Shown: positions 52,461-60,690 of the stretch, one piece after another
How the letters are laid out: every line of letters starts with the position of its first letter
Position numbering within the stretch: the stretch's first letter is position 1
Assembly: GCA_964004625.1 (NCBI GenBank)
Contig: CAXFOB010000016.1
Span: 2,319 to 66,318, forward strand
DNA from: an uncultured Flavobacteriales bacterium
Lineage (GTDB): Bacteria; Bacteroidota; Bacteroidia; Flavobacteriales; BACL11
Length of the DNA: 64,000 bases
Reading direction: 5' to 3'
Made by a program: the position numbers and the translations under genes
The notes under the pieces: generated by a model
The model's input: only the letters and a program-made list of their open reading frames with translations
What the model was told of the DNA's origin: nothing
Databases searched by the model: none

Positions 52461-53087
52461 ATGAAAACTTTAGTAAAAACTTTAACACTTTTAACATTCC
52501 TTAGTAATTGTACAACTGAAGGGAAGGAAACTCAAAACACCAGAATAAACATAAAAGAGGAAGTGGTTTTTACTCCTGAAAACTTTGCAGACAGTCTTAG
52601 TGTGGCTTCTATCAAACTCACTGAAACAAGGGTTGTTTACACTCCCAATTATGTAGGAATAGATTATCCTATGGGAGATGTACCAGTAAATACTGGTGTT
52701 TGTACAGATGTAATTATAAGAGCATATAGGGCCATGGGAATTGACCTACAGAAAGAACTTCATGAAGATATAAAAAACTTTCCTAATAGATATCCAAACA
52801 TTGATAGAGCAGATCATAATATTGATCATAGAAGAGTTCCTAATCTTTCCAAATTTTTTACAGAATATGGAGAAGTTTTAGATGTATCTAATAACACAAA
52901 CAACTACAAAGCGGGAGATATTATATATTGGAAATTAGGTGGAACCACAGACCATATTGGAATTGTAACCCACCTTAAAAATAAAAACGGGACACCTCTT
53001 ATAGTTCATAATATTTGCTGTGGACAAAATCTAGAAGACTGTCTTTTTGACTACCCTATCTACAAACATTTTAGGTTTAGAAAGTGA
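52461..53087 (+). CDS. DUF1287 (YijF-like) lipoprotein
   Basis: Lipobox LSNC; YPMGDVP...GVCTDVIIRAYR, NIDHRRVPNL, GDII.W, HIGIV. Confidence 0.85.
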   Translation: MKTLVKTLTLLTFLSNCTTEGKETQNTRINIKEEVVFTPENFADSLSVASIKLTETRVVYTPNYVGIDYPMGDVPVNTGVCTDVIIRAYRAMGIDLQKELHEDIKNFPNRYPNIDRADHNIDHRRVPNLSKFFTEYGEVLDVSNNTNNYKAGDIIYWKLGGTTDHIGIVTHLKNKNGTPLIVHNICCGQNLEDCLFDYPIYKHFRFRK

Positions 53088-54365
53088 TTATTTTATTAGC
53101 ATAACATCACCTATTTTCTTGCGTGTTTCTCCTAATTCATCCTCAATAATAATAGCCCACGCATACTTTCCAGCAATGGCATTCTCACCACTCCATCCAT
53201 CTCCTACGTCATTAGTTTTAAATACTTCTTCTCCCCATCTATCATAAACCACAAAAGTATAAGATTTGTATTTTGCCATTCGTAAACCTTTCGGTATAAA
53301 TACTTCATTCTTTCCGTCTTTGTTTGGAGAAAAACTATTTGGAACATACAATAAGAAATCATAATAAACCGTAATGGAATGAGAAATAGAATCCATACAA
53401 TTATTAGTATCTAATACAGTTAGCATTACCTCATAAATTCCTGGATTTGAAAACACATGTATTGGGTTTTCTATAGTAGTATCTCTACCATCTCCAAAAT
53501 CCCATAATAACGGAATTGCGTCTACAGATTTATTTGTAAATGTAATTTCCGGATTAAGAGTAGATGCAGAATACGGATAATATTCAAACTCTGCTTTGGG
53601 TAGATGATAAATTTGTAAATTCTTGCTAATTGAATCCTCACATCCTGCATCCGATTGTACTATTAAAGTAACATTATATAAATCTACCTCAGAATACAGA
53701 TGAGAAACAGTAGGTCCTGCATTATAACTTCCGTCGCCTAAGTTCCAAATCCAACTTACTATATTGCCTGTAGAAATAGTAGAAGCGTCTATTAAATTAC
53801 TTTCACTCTTAAAACAGATTCCATCAATCCAAAAGTCTGGATTAGGTTTGGGATTAAAATATACATCTATATTATTAGATATATTTTTGCATCCATTCGT
53901 ATCAGATACTAACACAAAATAGTTTCCGCTAGTAAATACATCTATACTATCTGTATTAAGTCCATTACTCCATATTAAAGATGTATACATTGAGTCGGAG
54001 ATTAAGGTCATAGAATCTCCTTCACATAATGTGGTATTACCAAGAGAATAAACAAACGGGGTTGGTTTCGGATATACTTCCACTAAAATACTATCTTTTC
54101 CTGTACATAAATTAGCATCAGTTTCTAGAACATGGAGCCAAAACACACCTGGAGTGTTAAGGTCAATTAAGATGTGCTCTGTTCCATTTCCAGAAGTGAT
54201 AGTTGCAATACTTTGTGTGCCAATAGTCCAATTATAAGTGGACCCAGTTGAAAAAGGAACAGCAAAATGTTGCGCAGTATCTCCTTCACAAAGGCGAATA
54301 ATATTTTGTGCCGATAAGGAAGTCTGCAACAAGAAGAAAAATAATATGTATTGTAGTTTTTTCAA
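53088..54365 (-). CDS. PKD-domain protein with T9SS type-B C-terminal domain
   Basis: Signal peptide, PKD-like N domain, WNLGDG/WDFGDG PKD domains, VPNSFSPNKDG.N..F...YDRWG...GWSG...G.Y...G.V.LIK. Confidence 0.9.
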   Translation of the reverse strand: MKKLQYILFFFLLQTSLSAQNIIRLCEGDTAQHFAVPFSTGSTYNWTIGTQSIATITSGNGTEHILIDLNTPGVFWLHVLETDANLCTGKDSILVEVYPKPTPFVYSLGNTTLCEGDSMTLISDSMYTSLIWSNGLNTDSIDVFTSGNYFVLVSDTNGCKNISNNIDVYFNPKPNPDFWIDGICFKSESNLIDASTISTGNIVSWIWNLGDGSYNAGPTVSHLYSEVDLYNVTLIVQSDAGCEDSISKNLQIYHLPKAEFEYYPYSASTLNPEITFTNKSVDAIPLLWDFGDGRDTTIENPIHVFSNPGIYEVMLTVLDTNNCMDSISHSITVYYDFLLYVPNSFSPNKDGKNEVFIPKGLRMAKYKSYTFVVYDRWGEEVFKTNDVGDGWSGENAIAGKYAWAIIIEDELGETRKKIGDVMLIK

Positions 54366-54374
54366 TTCTTTATA

Positions 54375-55949
54375 TTACCAATGGTTAATAGGTCCTGTAG
54401 TTGGTAGTGCATAAATTTCTAGAATTACTGTTGTAGGAGGACTCTGACATCCATTCTGGCTTTCTGTTACATAATAAGTATATATACCCACCGCAGTTTG
54501 TCCTGTAGCAAAAGGAGAATTTGTACCAACCATATTTGTAAGAGCCGCGTCATTATACCAACTAAATGAAGTACCAACACCTGTTGCTGTTAAATCCGGT
54601 ACAGCAGAACCAAAACAGGTATTTACATTAGATGCGATAGGTAAAGAATTAAATGCATTAATTGTTAAAGTTACAGGAGTTGCAATACTCTCACAACCAT
54701 TTACATTCGTCTCTGTTACATAATAAGTATATACCCCCGCTGTGGTTTGTCCTGTTGTAAAGTAAGTGCCTGTACCAACCACATTCGTTAGAGATGCATT
54801 AGAATACCATATAGAATTAGTTCCACTAGAAACTAAGTCAGGAATAATGCCACCGACACAGGCTGTCTCATTATTAGCAATAGGCGCAGTTGGTAAAGCG
54901 TATATTTCTAAAGTAGCTACAGAAGTAATACTTTCACATCCATTTAGATCTGTTGTAGTCGCATAATAAGTATATATTCCTACGGAATTTTGTCCTGTAG
55001 AAAGGGTATTGCCTGTCCCTACTTGTGCGGTAAGTGTAGAATCCGAATACCAGGTAATATTAGTTCCAGTAGATGTTAAATCTGGAATTATACTTCCAAA
55101 ACATGCTGTTTGATTAGAAACAGAAGGAGATGATGGTAAAGAGTATATTTCTAAAGTGGCAGAAGTTGCTGCACTCTCACAACCATTTACATCTGTAGTT
55201 GTTGCATAATAAGTATATATTCCCGCTGCAGTTTGTCCTGTTGCAAAGTTGGATCCTGTTCCTACTTGAGAAGTAAGTGTAGGATTAGAATACCAGGTAA
55301 TATTAGTACCAGTAGCTGTTAAATCTGGAACAGAAGATGAAAAACAAGTAGTTTGGTTTGTAGCAACTGGCGCTGGAGGAACCGCATATATCTCTAAAGT
55401 AACAGGAACTGAAGGTCCTTCACATCCATTTAATGTTTCAGTTACATAGTAAGTATACAATCCTACTACATTTTGTCCTGTAGCAAAATTATTTCCAGTT
55501 CCTACTTGTGTAGTTAGATTAACATCCGAATACCAAATAACATTACTCCCGATTGCGGTTAAATCCGGGATTGTACTTCCAAGACAAGCTGTTTGACTGG
55601 TACCAATAGTTGCTGTAGGTAATGGATTAACAGTTACATCTACTGTAATTGGAAGACCAATGCAACCATCTGCATCTGTTTCAATTACAGAAACAATATA
55701 TACACCTGGAGTAACCCCCCAATTTATTGTTATATTATCAGTAGTCGATCCATTAATAATAGTTCCTCCTCCAGTTAGACTCCATTGATAAGTAGATCCT
55801 GGAGTTGGAGGATTGATTAAATACGGTTCAACAGAACCTGCACATACCGTTTGAAACGGGGATGTGTTTGTTTGAGCAAACATCACGCTAGATGTAAGTA
55901 AGAATATTCCTAAGAATATTCGATGTAATAATTTGTTTTTTGTTTTCAT
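54375..55949 (-). CDS. Secreted Ig-like repeat protein without T9SS CTD (ends PTTGPINHW)
   Basis: Signal peptide (MFA|Q), PKD-like N domain, five ~82-aa repeats C.G..PDL...G....WY....L...VGT...TGQ...G.YTYY.....GC. Confidence 0.85.
   Translation of the reverse strand: MKTKNKLLHRIFLGIFLLTSSVMFAQTNTSPFQTVCAGSVEPYLINPPTPGSTYQWSLTGGGTIINGSTTDNITINWGVTPGVYIVSVIETDADGCIGLPITVDVTVNPLPTATIGTSQTACLGSTIPDLTAIGSNVIWYSDVNLTTQVGTGNNFATGQNVVGLYTYYVTETLNGCEGPSVPVTLEIYAVPPAPVATNQTTCFSSSVPDLTATGTNITWYSNPTLTSQVGTGSNFATGQTAAGIYTYYATTTDVNGCESAATSATLEIYSLPSSPSVSNQTACFGSIIPDLTSTGTNITWYSDSTLTAQVGTGNTLSTGQNSVGIYTYYATTTDLNGCESITSVATLEIYALPTAPIANNETACVGGIIPDLVSSGTNSIWYSNASLTNVVGTGTYFTTGQTTAGVYTYYVTETNVNGCESIATPVTLTINAFNSLPIASNVNTCFGSAVPDLTATGVGTSFSWYNDAALTNMVGTNSPFATGQTAVGIYTYYVTESQNGCQSPPTTVILEIYALPTTGPINHW
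54400..55610 (-). repeat. Five ~82-aa Ig-like tandem repeats
   Basis: PDLT/WYS/TGQ/YTYY/NGCE motifs recur five times; boundaries approximate. Confidence 0.85.
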
Positions 55950-55980
55950 GACCTTAACATTTAATTGATTAATATTTATT

Positions 55981-57846
55981 TTAATTATGATTTATTGGTT
56001 GTGTGGCTACAATAGAAATAGGCACCAAAACTACTGGAGACCATGGTCCTGCGTTACAGCCATTATCTTCTTTTACTTTGACTCTAAACTGAGTAGTAGA
56101 AGATATGTTATTATATATTTGTGGATTTGATGTTGACATACCAGGGCTTGTCATATTTATCCACCCTCCTCCATTATTAAACTGAAATCTATACCTATTT
56201 ACTGGAAGAGAAGTAGAAGCTGTAAGTATAATACTCTCACCTAAACATGCAGGATTAGGAATAGTTGAGAGAGTAGCTGTTGGAAGAGGATTTACTGTTA
56301 TTGTTACTACATCTGTTGCAACACAACCACCTGAATTAAATGTGCATGTATAGGTTGTTGAAGATGTAATCCCAGAACTAAAAATTGGATTTGGAACATT
56401 AGGGTCAACAAAATCAGATGCTGGACTCCAAGAATAGTTTCCGATAGATGAAGAAGTTGCACTTAATGAATTTGGAACAGCTCCACTACAAATTGTCTGA
56501 CTACCACTTGTAGTAACAGAAACATTAGAAGGTCCTCCAACAATTGCAGTTTCTGTAGCAGTACAGCCGTTAGCATCAGTAATTGTCATTGTATATGTTC
56601 CTGCTGATAGATTTGTTGCAGTCTGTGTAGTTTGTCCATCAGACCATAAATAAGTAACTGGTGTTGCTACCGAACCGGTAACAACAATAGTGTAATCTTC
56701 TGTTTCACCAAAGTAGGCACTTTGGTAATCACACGCTAATGATTGATTAGTATTTTGATGCTGATAGTTTTGAGCAACAATTCTCATTCTACTTTGTCCA
56801 GGTATTGCCGCAAATGGAACGGTAATTGGAATAGTATGAGTTGAAGGACTTTGAGTAGGATTTACTTGTCCAACTAACTCGTTGATATCATTAAAATCTC
56901 CATCAATATTCCAATCAATATATATATTAGCTCTATCTTCCAAATATTGAGCAGACCCATTCATACCAGCAAAATTACATGTACCTAAATCTAGAGTCAG
57001 ATTATAAGTATTTCCAGGAGTAACATCTGCAGACATGGAAGTAAAATCAAAATATTCTGTATTAGGACAAGTAGTATTATTATTTATCACATTAACATCT
57101 CCAATAAAATTTACATTAGTTATGGTAGAATATTGGTGAGAATTATATAAAGAATTAGGGCCAGAAAGACAATAATTATTTAATGCAGAAGCACCAACAC
57201 CAGTAATATTTACGGTAGCATATCCACTTTGAGTACAAGTCGCATCTATAACTGTAGTAGATAAATTAATTGGTGCAAATTGACTTATTCCAAAACTCTC
57301 TATTCCACAAGATTGTCCATCTGCAAAAACTTCATAAGTATGAGAACCTCCACACATATTTGTAAAAGTTTGATTAGCTGTTACGGATGATAATCCATCT
57401 ACAGAATAAGTGTAATTTGTAGGAACAATACCTCCTGTTAAATTTAAACTTAAAGATACATTACACTCGTTCGGACACGCTTGAGTTGGAGAAGATTGAA
57501 TATTGGAACTCGGCATCCTTATCTCAAAAGTATCTGAATACATTACACTTGGACATGAACTATAATAAGGAGAAGACGCGGTAATCACATAAAAACCCGC
57601 TTCTAAATCAACTCTCGAAGTGTTTGCTAGTGGTCCTCCAGTATTGAAAAAAACACCAGTTTGAACATTTTGCCAGGAATAATTTAGATAAGTAGCCTGT
57701 ATAATTTGTGCTGCCCCAACCGCTCCGCCATTCGGACAAATAATATGACTAATATTTGCAGTGTCAACAACTATACTACACTGAGAATGTAAGTTATTGG
57801 TACTTAAAATGAAAAGTATTAATAATATTTCTAAGTAATATTTCAC
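55981..57846 (-). CDS. Secreted GEVED + SprB-repeat protein without T9SS CTD (ends ATQPINHN)
   Basis: Signal peptide; YIDWN.DGDF.D..E...RMRI...GETEDY (GEVED); YLWSDGQTTQTATNLSAGTYT.TITDANGC (SprB). Confidence 0.85.
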   Translation of the reverse strand: MKYYLEILLILFILSTNNLHSQCSIVVDTANISHIICPNGGAVGAAQIIQATYLNYSWQNVQTGVFFNTGGPLANTSRVDLEAGFYVITASSPYYSSCPSVMYSDTFEIRMPSSNIQSSPTQACPNECNVSLSLNLTGGIVPTNYTYSVDGLSSVTANQTFTNMCGGSHTYEVFADGQSCGIESFGISQFAPINLSTTVIDATCTQSGYATVNITGVGASALNNYCLSGPNSLYNSHQYSTITNVNFIGDVNVINNNTTCPNTEYFDFTSMSADVTPGNTYNLTLDLGTCNFAGMNGSAQYLEDRANIYIDWNIDGDFNDINELVGQVNPTQSPSTHTIPITVPFAAIPGQSRMRIVAQNYQHQNTNQSLACDYQSAYFGETEDYTIVVTGSVATPVTYLWSDGQTTQTATNLSAGTYTMTITDANGCTATETAIVGGPSNVSVTTSGSQTICSGAVPNSLSATSSSIGNYSWSPASDFVDPNVPNPIFSSGITSSTTYTCTFNSGGCVATDVVTITVNPLPTATLSTIPNPACLGESIILTASTSLPVNRYRFQFNNGGGWINMTSPGMSTSNPQIYNNISSTTQFRVKVKEDNGCNAGPWSPVVLVPISIVATQPINHN

Positions 57847-57868
57847 AAATAAATCTTATATCTTAATA

Positions 57869-57876
57869 CAAAGATA
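57869..57876 (-). promoter_or_regulatory. -7 element TATCTTTG for the three-gene surface-protein operon
   Basis: TAnnTTTG match 22 nt before the GTG at 57846. Confidence 0.6.
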
Positions 57877-57885
57877 TAAAATATA

Positions 57886-59154
57886 CTACTCTATAGGAGA
57901 TAAATGATAATCCTTATAAATACACATCCTTACATCAGTATTTATATAACCTCCATTGTTTGAAAACTTTATAAATGAAAATTGTCTTTTATCAGAACAA
58001 AAATGCATGATCGACCTAAAAGATAATAATGAGTAATCATCCATTTGATGAGAAAAATTTGATTCAAACTGATGTAACAACCTCCTATTTTTAGTAGAAT
58101 GTCTATCAAAATAATTAGAAACAGGAATATGAACATTTAATTTCATTAATGTCTCTGTATTTAATTCTAAAACGTCCTTTAATGGTTCTTGCGCATATAT
58201 AGTAATTAAAGAATCAGAGGCTCCGCAAAATGTAACCACCTTTTTTATAAATGGTTTATTTTCAGATAAGATTAAAACAACATTCTCTTGATCACTTAAA
58301 AAACCAAAAGAACTTTTATTTACTGAAGATAAATTTCTAAATTCTTTATGGACAATCCCTGGAAAAGTAGTAAATAATCTATTCTTAAGTACAAAATATT
58401 CTGATTTTTTACTTTCCTGTTCGTTAGAAACAATGATTAATTTTTTCTTTGTCTCATTCTTAATAATACACCTTACTAAAGAATCTTTATGTTGTTTTAT
58501 AAAAGGTGTTAAAAAATAAACATTTTTAGATTCTTGTAAAAGAGTATAATTTCTTGACAATGGATTTATAATTACTTTATTATAATCTTTTCTGAAAAAA
58601 TTTCTAACTAAATTAAAATTCTTTAAATAGATAGGTCCAAAAATAATATTTGATGACTTTACTCTGATATCAGTGATAATTTTTTTAAGAGTATCTAAAT
58701 TATTTTCGGTATCAAAAACATGGATAACAACTGGAATCCCTAACTTTTCTAATGTATCTACAGACAATAATATTCCTTCGAGAAAACTAATTGCTAAGTT
58801 TGATTTATTATATATCTGATGAGTATCCTTCTGATTTTCTCTTAAATATTTCAATAATGTAGTGTTTTTATCAATATAAAAAGGAAGTAATACTGAAATA
58901 GTTATAGTATCTTTTATAATGGTAAATACAGAATCAGAACTATGTATAACATCTGAATTATGTAGATTTTTTTGTTGAATCTTAGGAATAATTAATTTAG
59001 GTTCTCTCTTATTTTTTTTTATTTCTTCATTATCAAGAGTCTTTGCTTTTCCACTAGGAGAGTGATATCCAAATTTAATCTTTTCTTGAGCAAAAGTAAT
59101 ATTCATTAAAAAAACGAATATAAAACATAATATATTACTTTTACTAAATCTCAT
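57886..59154 (-). CDS. Periplasmic-binding-protein-type (PBP1-like) exported protein
   Basis: Signal peptide; VLLPF, F.EG.LL..D.L...G.....VFDT, IIFGPIY, NPLS; sits downstream of guaA like the LysM-PBP1 proteins of Bacteroidota. Confidence 0.65.
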   Translation of the reverse strand: MRFSKSNILCFIFVFLMNITFAQEKIKFGYHSPSGKAKTLDNEEIKKNKREPKLIIPKIQQKNLHNSDVIHSSDSVFTIIKDTITISVLLPFYIDKNTTLLKYLRENQKDTHQIYNKSNLAISFLEGILLSVDTLEKLGIPVVIHVFDTENNLDTLKKIITDIRVKSSNIIFGPIYLKNFNLVRNFFRKDYNKVIINPLSRNYTLLQESKNVYFLTPFIKQHKDSLVRCIIKNETKKKLIIVSNEQESKKSEYFVLKNRLFTTFPGIVHKEFRNLSSVNKSSFGFLSDQENVVLILSENKPFIKKVVTFCGASDSLITIYAQEPLKDVLELNTETLMKLNVHIPVSNYFDRHSTKNRRLLHQFESNFSHQMDDYSLLSFRSIMHFCSDKRQFSFIKFSNNGGYINTDVRMCIYKDYHLSPIE

Positions 59155-60690
59155 TTATTCCCATTCTATAGTAGCAGGTGGTTTAGATGAAATATCATAC
59201 ACCACTCTATTAATTCCCTTTACTTTGTTAATTATTTCATTAGATACTTTTGATAAAAACTCGTAAGGAAGGTGCACCCAATCAGCAGTCATTCCGTCAG
59301 TAGATTCAACCGCTCTAAGTGCTACCGCATTTTCATATGTACGCTCATCTCCCATAACTCCTACTGATTGAATAGGTAAAAATATCGCCCCTGCTTGCCA
59401 TACTGAATCATATAAGCCTTCTTTCTTTAAGGAAGTAATGAAAATAGAATCTACCTCCTGAAGTATTCTTACTTTTTCTGAAGTAACATCTCCTAAAATT
59501 CTGATTGCTAATCCAGGACCAGGAAAAGGATGTCTTCCTAAAAGTTCTGGATCAATACCCATGGATTTCCCTATTCTTCTTACTTCATCTTTAAATAAGG
59601 TTTTTAGTGGTTCTACAATCTTTAACTTCATATAATCTGGCAAACCACCAACATTATGATGAGATTTAATAGTCGCAGAAGGCCCTCCTGTAGCAGAAAC
59701 AGATTCAATAACATCAGGATATATTGTTCCTTGCGCAAGCCACACTACATCTTTAATTTTGTTTGCCTCATCATCAAACACATCTATAAATTTATTACCA
59801 ATCGCCTTTCTTTTCTTTTCAGGATCCGAGATCCCGGACAATACATTATAAAATCTATCTTTTGCATCCACTCCTTTTACATTTAGTCCCATTCCATGAT
59901 ATTGTTTTAAAACAGATTCAAACTCATCCTTTCTCAATAATCCATTATCAACAAATATACAATACAGATTATCTCCAATAGCCTTGTGTAATAACACAGA
60001 TGCCACAGTAGAGTCTACTCCACCAGAAAGTCCTAAAACTACTTTATCATTTCCTAATTTTTGTTGTAGTTCTGCAACAGTATCCTCTACAAAAGAGATT
60101 GGGGTCCAATCTTGGGCACATCCCGCAATATCTATTAAAAAGTTATGTAATAATTGTTGACCATCAGTCGAGTGGTAAACTTCAGGGTGAAATTGAATAG
60201 CAAAAGTTGATTCATCTTGTACTTTATATGCAGCAACTTTTACATCTTTTGTACTTGCAATTACTTCAAAATTATCTGGTAAACTTGAAATAGTATCTCC
60301 ATGACTCATCCAAACCTGAGAATTATCTGGAATACTTTTTAATAAAGGGCTTTCATGATTTACATAAGATAAATATGCCCTTCCATATTCTCTAATTTTA
60401 GAAGGCAAAACCTCCCCTCCATTACTTTTAACTAAATACTGAGCTCCATAACATACTCCTAACAAAGGGATCTTACCACTAATATTTTCCAAATTTGGTT
60501 TAGGACTATTATCATCTCTTACTGAAAAAGGACTACCTGACAACACAACCGCTTTAACGTTATCATCTAACTCTGGAATATTGTTAAATGGATGGATCTC
60601 ACAATAAATATTTAACTCTCTAACTCTTCGCGCAATAAGCTGTGTGTATTGAGACCCAAAATCTAGAATAATGATTTTTTCGTGTGTCAT
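59155..60690 (-). CDS. guaA: GMP synthase (glutamine-hydrolysing)
   Basis: [49 protein letters not shown]. Confidence 0.98.

Follow-up and report, generated by a model that had tools for sequence, protein, structure and literature searches.

A conserved three-gene locus of marine Flavobacteriales may encode a surface adhesin whose subunits are joined by PKD_6 domains split across gene boundaries

The DNA analyzed here is a 64,000-nt stretch of contig CAXFOB010000016.1 (positions 2,319 to 66,318 of the forward strand; assembly GCA_964004625.1), which belongs to an uncultured Flavobacteriales bacterium of the lineage BACL11 and is referred to below as the window. Three consecutive minus-strand genes, here called B, A, and C, are separated by gaps of 31 nt (B to A) and 9 nt (A to C). 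B and A end in a similar short tail, and the protein encoded after each of them opens with a domain that seems to lack the very strand that the tail resembles. We propose, with a probability of roughly 0.6, that B, A, and C together make up one adhesin of the cell surface in which a split PKD_6 domain is closed in trans, and that this adhesin is anchored, and probably exported, via C. The genome (1.64 Mb, 30.7% GC, 42 contigs, completeness 99.79) contains 1463 open reading frames (ORFs) of at least 100 amino acids (aa). The features of the locus, which include the C-terminal domain (CTD) of a type IX secretion system (T9SS) cargo and immunoglobulin (Ig)-like repeats, are as follows.

55981 to 57846, minus strand: gene B, putative tip subunit, 621 aa, with signal peptide, variable GEVED head, Ig-like repeats, and donor tail.
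54375 to 55949, minus strand: gene A, putative middle subunit, 524 aa, with signal peptide, acceptor PKD_6 N-domain, five Ig_7 repeats, and donor tail.
53088 to 54365, minus strand: gene C, putative base subunit, 425 aa, with signal peptide, acceptor N-domain, two PKD domains, and T9SS type-B CTD.
55984 to 56016, minus strand: donor tail of B, residues 611-621 (SIVATQPINHN), of which the last 8 residues match PKD_6 positions 4-11.
54378 to 54401, minus strand: donor tail of A, residues 517-524 (TTGPINHW), from the ORF and the alignment.
55626 to 55874, minus strand: acceptor N-domain of A, residues 26-108, which starts at PKD_6 position 12, apparently without the first strand.
54066 to 54308, minus strand: acceptor N-domain of C, residues 20-100, homologous to that of A and putative receptor of the A tail.
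53091 to 53345, minus strand: type-B T9SS CTD (CHU_C) of C, residues 341-425, assigned by Pfam and NCBIfam and conserved in 16 C proteins.

In Pfam, B matches GEVED (PF20009, 59.9 bits, residues 307-387). A matches PKD_6 (PF19408, 30.1 bits against a cut-off of 25) with residues 33-83, corresponding to positions 12-63 of the hidden Markov model (HMM), and Ig_7 with 143 bits over five stretches. The PKD_6 match of C (21.8 bits, residues 24-72, HMM positions 13-60) stays below the cut-off of 25, and this domain is clearly homologous to the N-domain of A; it is accompanied by PKD_4 (96 bits) and CHU_C (PF13585, 49.8 bits against a cut-off of 27, residues 341-414), and the NCBIfam model TIGR04131 gives 33.7 bits, slightly short of its cut-off of 35. 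No T9SS CTD family (Por_Secre_tail, PF18962/TIGR04183; CHU_C, PF13585/TIGR04131) was found in A or B with Pfam and NCBIfam at E values of up to 0.01. All three proteins have signal peptides with sites read by eye as ...HSQ/C (B), ...FAQ/T (A), and ...SAQ/N (C), of the signal peptidase I type and lying just before the Gln. At these sites, the AlphaFold2 (AF2) models of A and C show an N-terminal helix (residues 2-13 in C) and then a low-confidence stretch. By eye, no lipobox fits in the three signal peptides, and the Pfam scan gave no fimbrillin family. As judged from the sequence, the CTD of C appears to be the sole export and anchor signal of the operon.

A preliminary description of this DNA had pointed out that two otherwise different proteins end in LPTTGPINHW (A, stop codon 54375-54377) and IVATQPINHN (B, stop codon 55981-55983), and that the P-I-N-H codons differ at three wobble positions (CCT ATT AAC CAT in A, CCA ATA AAT CAT in B); it concluded that the match is conserved at the protein level and sits where a T9SS CTD would be expected. 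ORF translation reproduces both endings and all three codon differences, and the two tails do stand at the C terminus of proteins in which Pfam and NCBIfam recognize no CTD. Orthologues mix ATA/ATT/ATC, CAT/CAC, CCA/CCT/CCC, and TAA/TAG, and this synonymous variation indicates that selection acts on the protein. The match between the two tails also goes beyond chance; [ILVM]-x-H-[NWYF] ends only 2 of the 1463 ORFs of the genome, namely A and B (H-[NWYF] ends three). The description had further named variable C termini among homologues as a sign against its proposal; instead, the tail is kept. The ending I-x-H-[NYWF] is present in 80 of 120 database proteins matching the last 182 residues of B, the remaining 40 being distant relatives, mostly with CTD-like ends, and in 95 of 106 new proteins matching the first 115 residues of A, the other 11 of which mostly look truncated.

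The conserved core is narrower than first described, namely, I-x-H-[NWYF]-stop after T-[GQPS]-[PLSA]. Alignment of 69 B-type proteins and of 90 A-type proteins shows that the tail Ile and His never vary (I618 and H620 in B; I521 and H523 in A, together with P516), and T518, G519, and P520 of A are at least 90% conserved. The residue between Ile and His is variable (N, S, W, F, Q, I, Y, or A), and B and A both end one residue past the His, at a position occupied by N, W, Y, or F. A strictly conserved terminal motif would suit a site of covalent attachment or processing (lipid, glycan, or protein transfer of the sortase or PorU type), and a passage of PMC9143113 describes type-A T9SS cargo as being cleaved and linked. 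This explanation is very improbable, since the His is followed by a single residue of the four kinds just named, the motif has no hydrophobic or charged anchor behind it, and the conserved neighborhood holds no gene for a dedicated enzyme.

The tail is evidently no new sorting domain; it corresponds to the first strand of PKD_6. Our reference consisted of 85 PKD_6 repeats from 11 single-chain proteins (here, cis repeats), 83 of which are in register and start with P-x-P-x-T-S-[PA]-I-[TS]-G-[PSN]-x-x-V-C. By Pfam position, Ile8 is found in 72 and Gly10 in 82 of these 83 repeats, and a Cys stands at position 15. The tails T-Q-P-I-N-H-N (B) and T-G-P-I-N-H-W (A) match positions 4-11, with His replacing Gly10, and end at position 11. 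The Pfam match begins at position 12 in A (residue 33, QTVC) and at position 13 in C, compared with positions 4-7 in the cis repeats. Because the tails represent positions 4-11 and the next protein opens at position 12 or 13, the gene boundaries fall inside a PKD_6 domain, after its first strand. A position-specific scoring matrix built from cis positions 4-9 and 11 ranks the B tail first (12.3 bits) and the A tail third among the 1463 C termini of the genome; the next unrelated C terminus after the B tail scores 5.9 bits. Reading the tail as the P-x-I-x-F strand of classical PKD domains (an internal match on contig C6) put it out of register, and this reading was dropped.

The exchange of Gly for His sets the tails apart from every cis repeat that we could place in register. 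A search of representative proteins with residues 1-115 of A, run against 1.84 billion sequences, was swamped by giant multi-repeat proteins; in the matches listed, cis domains align to A mostly from about residue 28-35 onward, and 4 among the 150 representative matches listed are of the N-terminal acceptor type. In the register T-x-x-I-x-?-x(3-5)-C, the open position is Gly 426 times and His not once in 147 representative proteins. Within the host genome, a PKD_6 search gave three matches, among which there is no further split system; the cis domain on contig C39 reads N-T-P-P-I-T-G-P.

These counts bear on a conceivable origin by gene fission, in which the tail would be an inert linker remnant of a long single-chain adhesin and the three proteins would act separately. 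The long relatives are indeed single chains, and the tail resembles the first half of an inter-domain linker (within A, LEIYALPTAPIANNETAC, compared with LEIYALPTTGPINHW at its end). Yet an inert tail would drift, whereas Ile and His are invariant in 159 proteins with widely differing heads; His stands for Gly everywhere in the tails and nowhere in the cis repeats; the stop codon always follows position 11 directly, save at one locus (L026) with one extra residue; and the prediction of a complex between B and A (see below) is strongly positive. We therefore regard the remnant hypothesis as quite improbable, although less so than the covalent site.

Distant single-chain relatives contain up to 14 or more tandem PKD_6 domains. 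None of the 120 listed long relatives has the tail, and a single one of the 147 representative proteins does; CHU_C or Por_Secre_tail is listed for 108 of 120 listed relatives of 1088-3105 aa (counted by eye). Conversely, no CTD family is listed for any of the 80 tail-bearing relatives of B. The same domain types thus occur in two forms, either as one long CTD-bearing chain or as pieces with a CTD on the last one only.

Relatives share the gene order guaA, LysM/PBP-like gene, B, A, C, convergent LolA-like gene, and ftsK. Twelve relatives from the genome set, 13 of 75 species-representative loci, and the window itself provided 26 operon entries, 20 of which are distinct. In each operon, a tail-bearing gene is followed by one whose product opens, after its signal peptide, with the same kind of N-domain. 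The architecture of the 20 distinct operons is constant: B is donor only, A is acceptor and donor, and C is acceptor with a CTD, so that the last gene carries the CTD (over which the 16 C proteins align). The gaps range from 0 to 81 nt, and the lengths of B (about 230 to 1046 aa) and A (190 to 639 aa) vary widely. Among the relatives of B, GEVED, C-type lectin, leucine-rich repeat, and SprB-repeat heads are found on the same tail. The A-type tail (T-G-P-I-x-H-W/N) and the B-type tail (T-Q/P-P-I-x-H-N) remain distinguishable within each genome. We reject a reading of the three ORFs as a single gene interrupted by stop codons or a frameshift, given that each downstream ORF opens with a signal peptide that is conserved in the operons examined and that the gaps vary in length.

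At one locus (L038, 4498-8702), the system comprises four genes: two A-type subunits (363 aa with the end TPPIWHN and 590 aa with the end PGPIWHN) follow each other ahead of the CTD-bearing C, and the upstream B is interrupted by unread bases. Another locus (L045, 2997-6669), from a different family of the order, has tails NTSLIYHY and TTGPIMHN and then a base protein of 194 aa, and its A-type acceptor reads G-V-A-Y in place of E-P-Y. A further locus (L040) is deposited under a gammaproteobacterial genus name, yet it has the Flavobacteriales gene order and is probably a mis-binned contig.

The constant pairing of tail and acceptor can be set against the notion of an autonomous sorting or recognition signal, in which a T9SS or outer-membrane component (e.g., a PorV/PorP-like shuttle) would bind I-x-H-[NWYF]-COOH and export or anchor B and A independently. 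Several observations suit such a signal: the tail takes the place of a CTD, the two exclude each other, conservation of the tail is greatest in its last four residues, and for several PorP/SprF paralogues of the genome no cargo partner is obvious. Moreover, a free carboxyl end is a typical ligand of peptide-binding domains. A general machinery, however, would need neither a residue-by-residue match with PKD_6 positions 4-11 nor an acceptor that is always encoded next, and the tail is present on only two proteins per genome. In addition, the portions of PMC9251779 and PMC12618676 that deal with known T9SS signals describe them as folded domains of about 70-100 residues. An independent signal is therefore unlikely, if less so than an inert remnant; both are weakened because the tail matches a strand whose remaining domain is encoded next and because the invariant His is exclusive to the tails.

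The single-protein AF2 models (mean predicted local distance difference test [pLDDT] value of 78.9 for A and 88.3 for C) agree with a missing strand. According to DSSP, which assigns short strands here, two strands precede strand B in each internal repeat, compared with one in the N-domains of A and C. The N-domain of A has a strand at 32-36 followed by one at 40-45, and that of C has a strand at 22-26, directly after the signal peptide, followed by one at 32-35. Invariant residues are C36, Y43, E90, and C96 in the 90 A-type proteins and C26, F34, W46, and C87 in the 16 C proteins. At the position two residues ahead of the conserved aromatic residue of strand B, Val is found in 41 and Glu in 3 of 82 cis repeats; in A-type acceptors, this position holds Glu (E-P-Y), and in those of the C type, it holds Gln, Glu, His, Tyr, or Arg. 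Among solved folds, GhpA fragments are the nearest to C (E values of 1e-20 to 1e-15).

For the B-to-A junction, a complex of residues 515-621 of B and 26-118 of A was predicted with unpaired alignments that we built ourselves. Its score is 0.84 (0.84, 0.84, and 0.81 in three runs), and the best of three controls reached 0.00; of 157 solved complexes, 116 attain a mark of 0.84, as do 2 of 215 mismatched pairs, a calibration that holds only roughly for unpaired alignments. Contact agreement between runs is at least 98%, and the partner pLDDT is at least 87. The predicted interface comprises residues 611-621 (listed as 611-613 and 615-621), 532, and 534-535 on the B side and residues 26-31, 33, 35, 41-49, 52, 86, 88-92, and 94-103 on the A side. 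B residues 613-620 run along strand 41-45 of A, with 616 contacting 45, 618 contacting 43-45, and 620 contacting 41-44, a pattern that indicates an antiparallel arrangement. In this model, I618 reaches into the core (Y43, L44, I45, 86, 88, and 101-103 of A), and H620 touches Q33 and E41-L44. In silico, the terminal peptide of the neighbor thus lies in the position of the missing strand, which is what defines a donor strand. The predicted complex looks like a PKD_6 domain with its first strand supplied in trans and supports binding of the two proteins. The predicted contact of the tail His is with the same stretch before the strand-B aromatic. The changes from Gly to His and from Val to Glu can be regarded as coupled, and we read the tail His and the acceptor Glu as a polar pair that may make up for the lost covalent link.

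The mature N terminus of A, Q-T-N-T-S-P (residues 26-31, window 55857-55874), is at least 90% conserved. In the predicted complex, these residues touch the last domain of B (532, 534-535, and 611-613), a hint that the two proteins may clasp each other and that strand donation may not be one-way.

We infer from sequence homology that the A tail would pair with the N-domain of C in the same manner. A different wiring would have the A tail enter another A molecule, giving a polymer shaft capped by B and based on C, that is, a pilus-like fiber and not a 1:1:1 string. A has both an acceptor and a donor, its acceptor is homologous to that of C, its length is variable, and locus L038 has two A-type genes in series; furthermore, the very end of A (521-523, I-N-H, window 54378-54386) is scored as an orphan strand in the AF2 monomer, so it pairs with something there. 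The fact that A- and B-type tails are kept distinct within genomes suggests, on the contrary, that they fit distinct sockets. By its own text, the complex-prediction tool handles filaments poorly. We rate a shaft of A subunits as unlikely to the same degree as an independent signal. As an aside relevant to the polymer variant, the partner of the terminal strand in the A monomer model might be the N-domain of A itself.

The sequence of events that we envisage for a B-A-C adhesin is as follows. B, A, and C would be exported by Sec and lose their signal peptides. The B tail would then insert into the N-domain of A as the missing edge strand, its Ile filling the core position that is held by Ile in single-chain domains and its His, in place of the Gly of the cis turn, lying against the Glu particular to split acceptors. 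Likewise, the A tail would complete the N-domain of C, and the three proteins would form a string of Ig domains (B-A-C) that has a variable head. The type-B CTD of C would lead this string through the T9SS and attach it to a PorP-like protein, so that B and A, which lack a CTD, would reach the surface and stay there by riding on C. Assembly in the periplasm before export, co-export, and dependence on the T9SS are parts of this scheme that we infer. They are compatible with passages of PMC9251779, according to which the T9SS moves folded proteins, and of PMC9143113, according to which type-B CTD proteins are held by PorP-like proteins.

The following points weigh against this adhesin model. (i) Halves of a split domain tend to pass a complex prediction owing to their likeness to solved single-chain tandem Ig structures (e.g., the GhpA fragments); given this likeness, the positive result for B and A shows that the pieces look like one domain and not that they bind each other in the cell. 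The score is, moreover, a measure of model confidence obtained with our own unpaired alignments. (ii) The coupling of Gly to His with Val to Glu may reflect a single evolutionary event. (iii) The conserved N-terminal peptide QTNTSP of A could supply the strand in cis; its disorder in the A monomer model (pLDDT below 50 for residues 23-27) is weak evidence to the contrary. (iv) Across the 20 distinct operons, there is no clear covariation between tail and acceptor residues, and tails PINHN, PISHN, PIAHN, PIWHN, and LISHN all face near-identical A acceptors. (v) C has no adjacent PorP/SprF gene, as none of the seven matches in the genome (one of them marginal) adjoins it. (vi) A literature search within a limited collection of papers gave no CTD-less protein that crosses the outer membrane together with a T9SS cargo. 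(vii) The organisms are uncultured and represented by metagenome-assembled genomes.

With these reservations, a donor strand is favored among the three roles that the preliminary description had offered for the tail (a short export signal, a donor strand, or a covalent-linkage site), on account of the match with the first strand of PKD_6, an acceptor that starts where the tail stops, and the complex prediction. Nothing in the present sequence analysis supports the other two, i.e., an autonomous sorting signal or a covalent link.

The B-A-C system works like known cases of strand donation but is a member of neither type of pilus to which it can be compared. In chaperone-usher pili (Fim, Pap, and Caf1), as in the model proposed here, an Ig-like subunit is short of a strand that a brief terminal extension of its neighbor contributes in trans, which gives a noncovalent series of Ig domains running from a tip adhesin to a base. 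In those pili, it is the last (G) strand that an N-terminal extension stands in for, and assembly depends on a periplasmic chaperone and an outer-membrane usher, whereas the donor in B-A-C is a C-terminal tail that would supply the first (A) strand of PKD_6, and the base subunit has a T9SS CTD. Neither chaperone nor usher genes are present at the conserved locus, where the neighbors are guaA and the LysM/PBP-like, LolA-like, and FtsK genes (the search for usher families did not extend to the whole genome). Type V pilins are lipoprotein precursors that polymerize after an N-terminal strand has been removed by proteolysis. Type V pili (FimA/Mfa1) occur in the same phylum, have donated strands as well, and are built of tip, shaft, and anchor proteins from one gene cluster; a passage of PMC4789730 describes their assembly by strand exchange. 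B, A, and C differ from them in the absence of a lipobox, in belonging to the PKD_6 and Ig_7 families, and in the type-B T9SS CTD of the last subunit. It is because of the C-terminal donor, the first strand of PKD_6, the lack of chaperone, usher, lipobox, and fimbrillin, and a base that is T9SS cargo that we place B-A-C outside both types.

The single-chain T9SS adhesins, such as SprB-like proteins and the grappling hook protein GhpA of Aureispira (PDB 9flw and others), are similar in composition. They have the same PKD_6 and Ig_7 families and a CHU_C or Por_Secre_tail CTD, and the tail matches the start of their repeats. They are, however, single polypeptides of 1100 to over 7000 aa, whereas B-A-C is cut at two points inside a domain and has separate signal peptides and His in place of Gly. 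With regard to export, there is a parallel in the hitchhiker transport of PaoABC by the Tat system, for which a section of PMC4273604 reports that subunits without a targeting signal cross the membrane bound to a partner, via a system for folded proteins; the machine and the membrane are different. The literature search mentioned above likewise gave no account in which strand complementation assembles a T9SS cargo.

A more tentative extension, to which we give clearly less credence than to the adhesin itself, is that the locus represents a hitherto undescribed route to fibers in Bacteroidota, in which subunits are zipped to a T9SS cargo in the periplasm and the noncovalent string is threaded as though it were one giant SprB-like protein. 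If true, this would be a T9SS-dependent donor-strand adhesin or pilus, the tip of which could be swapped by recombination with the anchor left untouched. If the adhesin model is right, a T9SS cargo need not be a single polypeptide. CTD-less proteins could then be displayed on the surface by strand zipping to a CTD-bearing partner, and they would be missed by CTD-based predictions of the T9SS secretome. The tail and its acceptor would also constitute a natural minimal split-domain tag of about 8 residues with its socket, which would be of interest for protein engineering, with a clear design rule that exchanges Gly for His on the donor side and Val for Glu on the socket side. For the abundant marine Flavobacteriales with small genomes, such a system suggests a way to vary the tip of an adhesin while the anchor is kept.

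The system is restricted to a lineage of small-genome marine Flavobacteriales. Of 401 genomes of the order, 25 contain the DNA pattern for T-G-P-I-x-H-x-stop; 22 are among the 63 genomes of the window's family (the window's genome counted) and three elsewhere, while a reversed control pattern was found in 6 of the 401, none of which is in that family. A general occurrence of the motif in Bacteroidota, for which the preliminary description had proposed a search, is thus not borne out.

Marine RNA-seq data from four runs, belonging to four studies, contain contigs of 151-445 nt that cover stretches of all three genes (53313-57752) with 95-100% identity, mostly at least 99%; none of these contigs spans a gene junction, and DNA carry-over is possible. 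A scan of positions 52900-59300 for sigma-70 promoters and terminators, which does not cover promoters of the Bacteroidota kind, stayed at the level of shuffled sequence (40 compared with 33.1 +/- 6.2 for promoters and 2 compared with 2.3 for terminators).

On the upstream side, B is preceded by the following gene.

57886 to 59154, minus strand: upstream neighbor, 422 aa, syntenic in all relatives.

Its product, which has no Pfam match, is probably outside the adhesin system. Its orthologues in other genera have a LysM domain and a match to Peripla_BP_6, a periplasmic-binding-protein family, that stays below its cut-off; the LysM part seems to have been lost or to have diverged in the window. 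Between C and the LolA-like gene lies a DUF1287 gene (window 52461-53087, plus strand; 203 bits), which also matches a CHAP-like domain weakly. Apart from the window, one relative of the same genus (L023/L041) has this gene, whereas the other syntenic loci do not; it looks recently inserted into a gene order that is otherwise fixed.

In line with the proposed export via C, the host genome encodes T9SS machinery: SprA, six PorP/SprF matches and one marginal match, and about 20 CHU_C proteins. Four of the PorP/SprF genes are located directly downstream of other CHU_C genes. Many of the CHU_C proteins are 1000-2500 aa long (contigs C6, C7, C13, C15, C16, C30, C34, C37, C39, and others), and T9SS surface proteins make up a very large share of this small genome.

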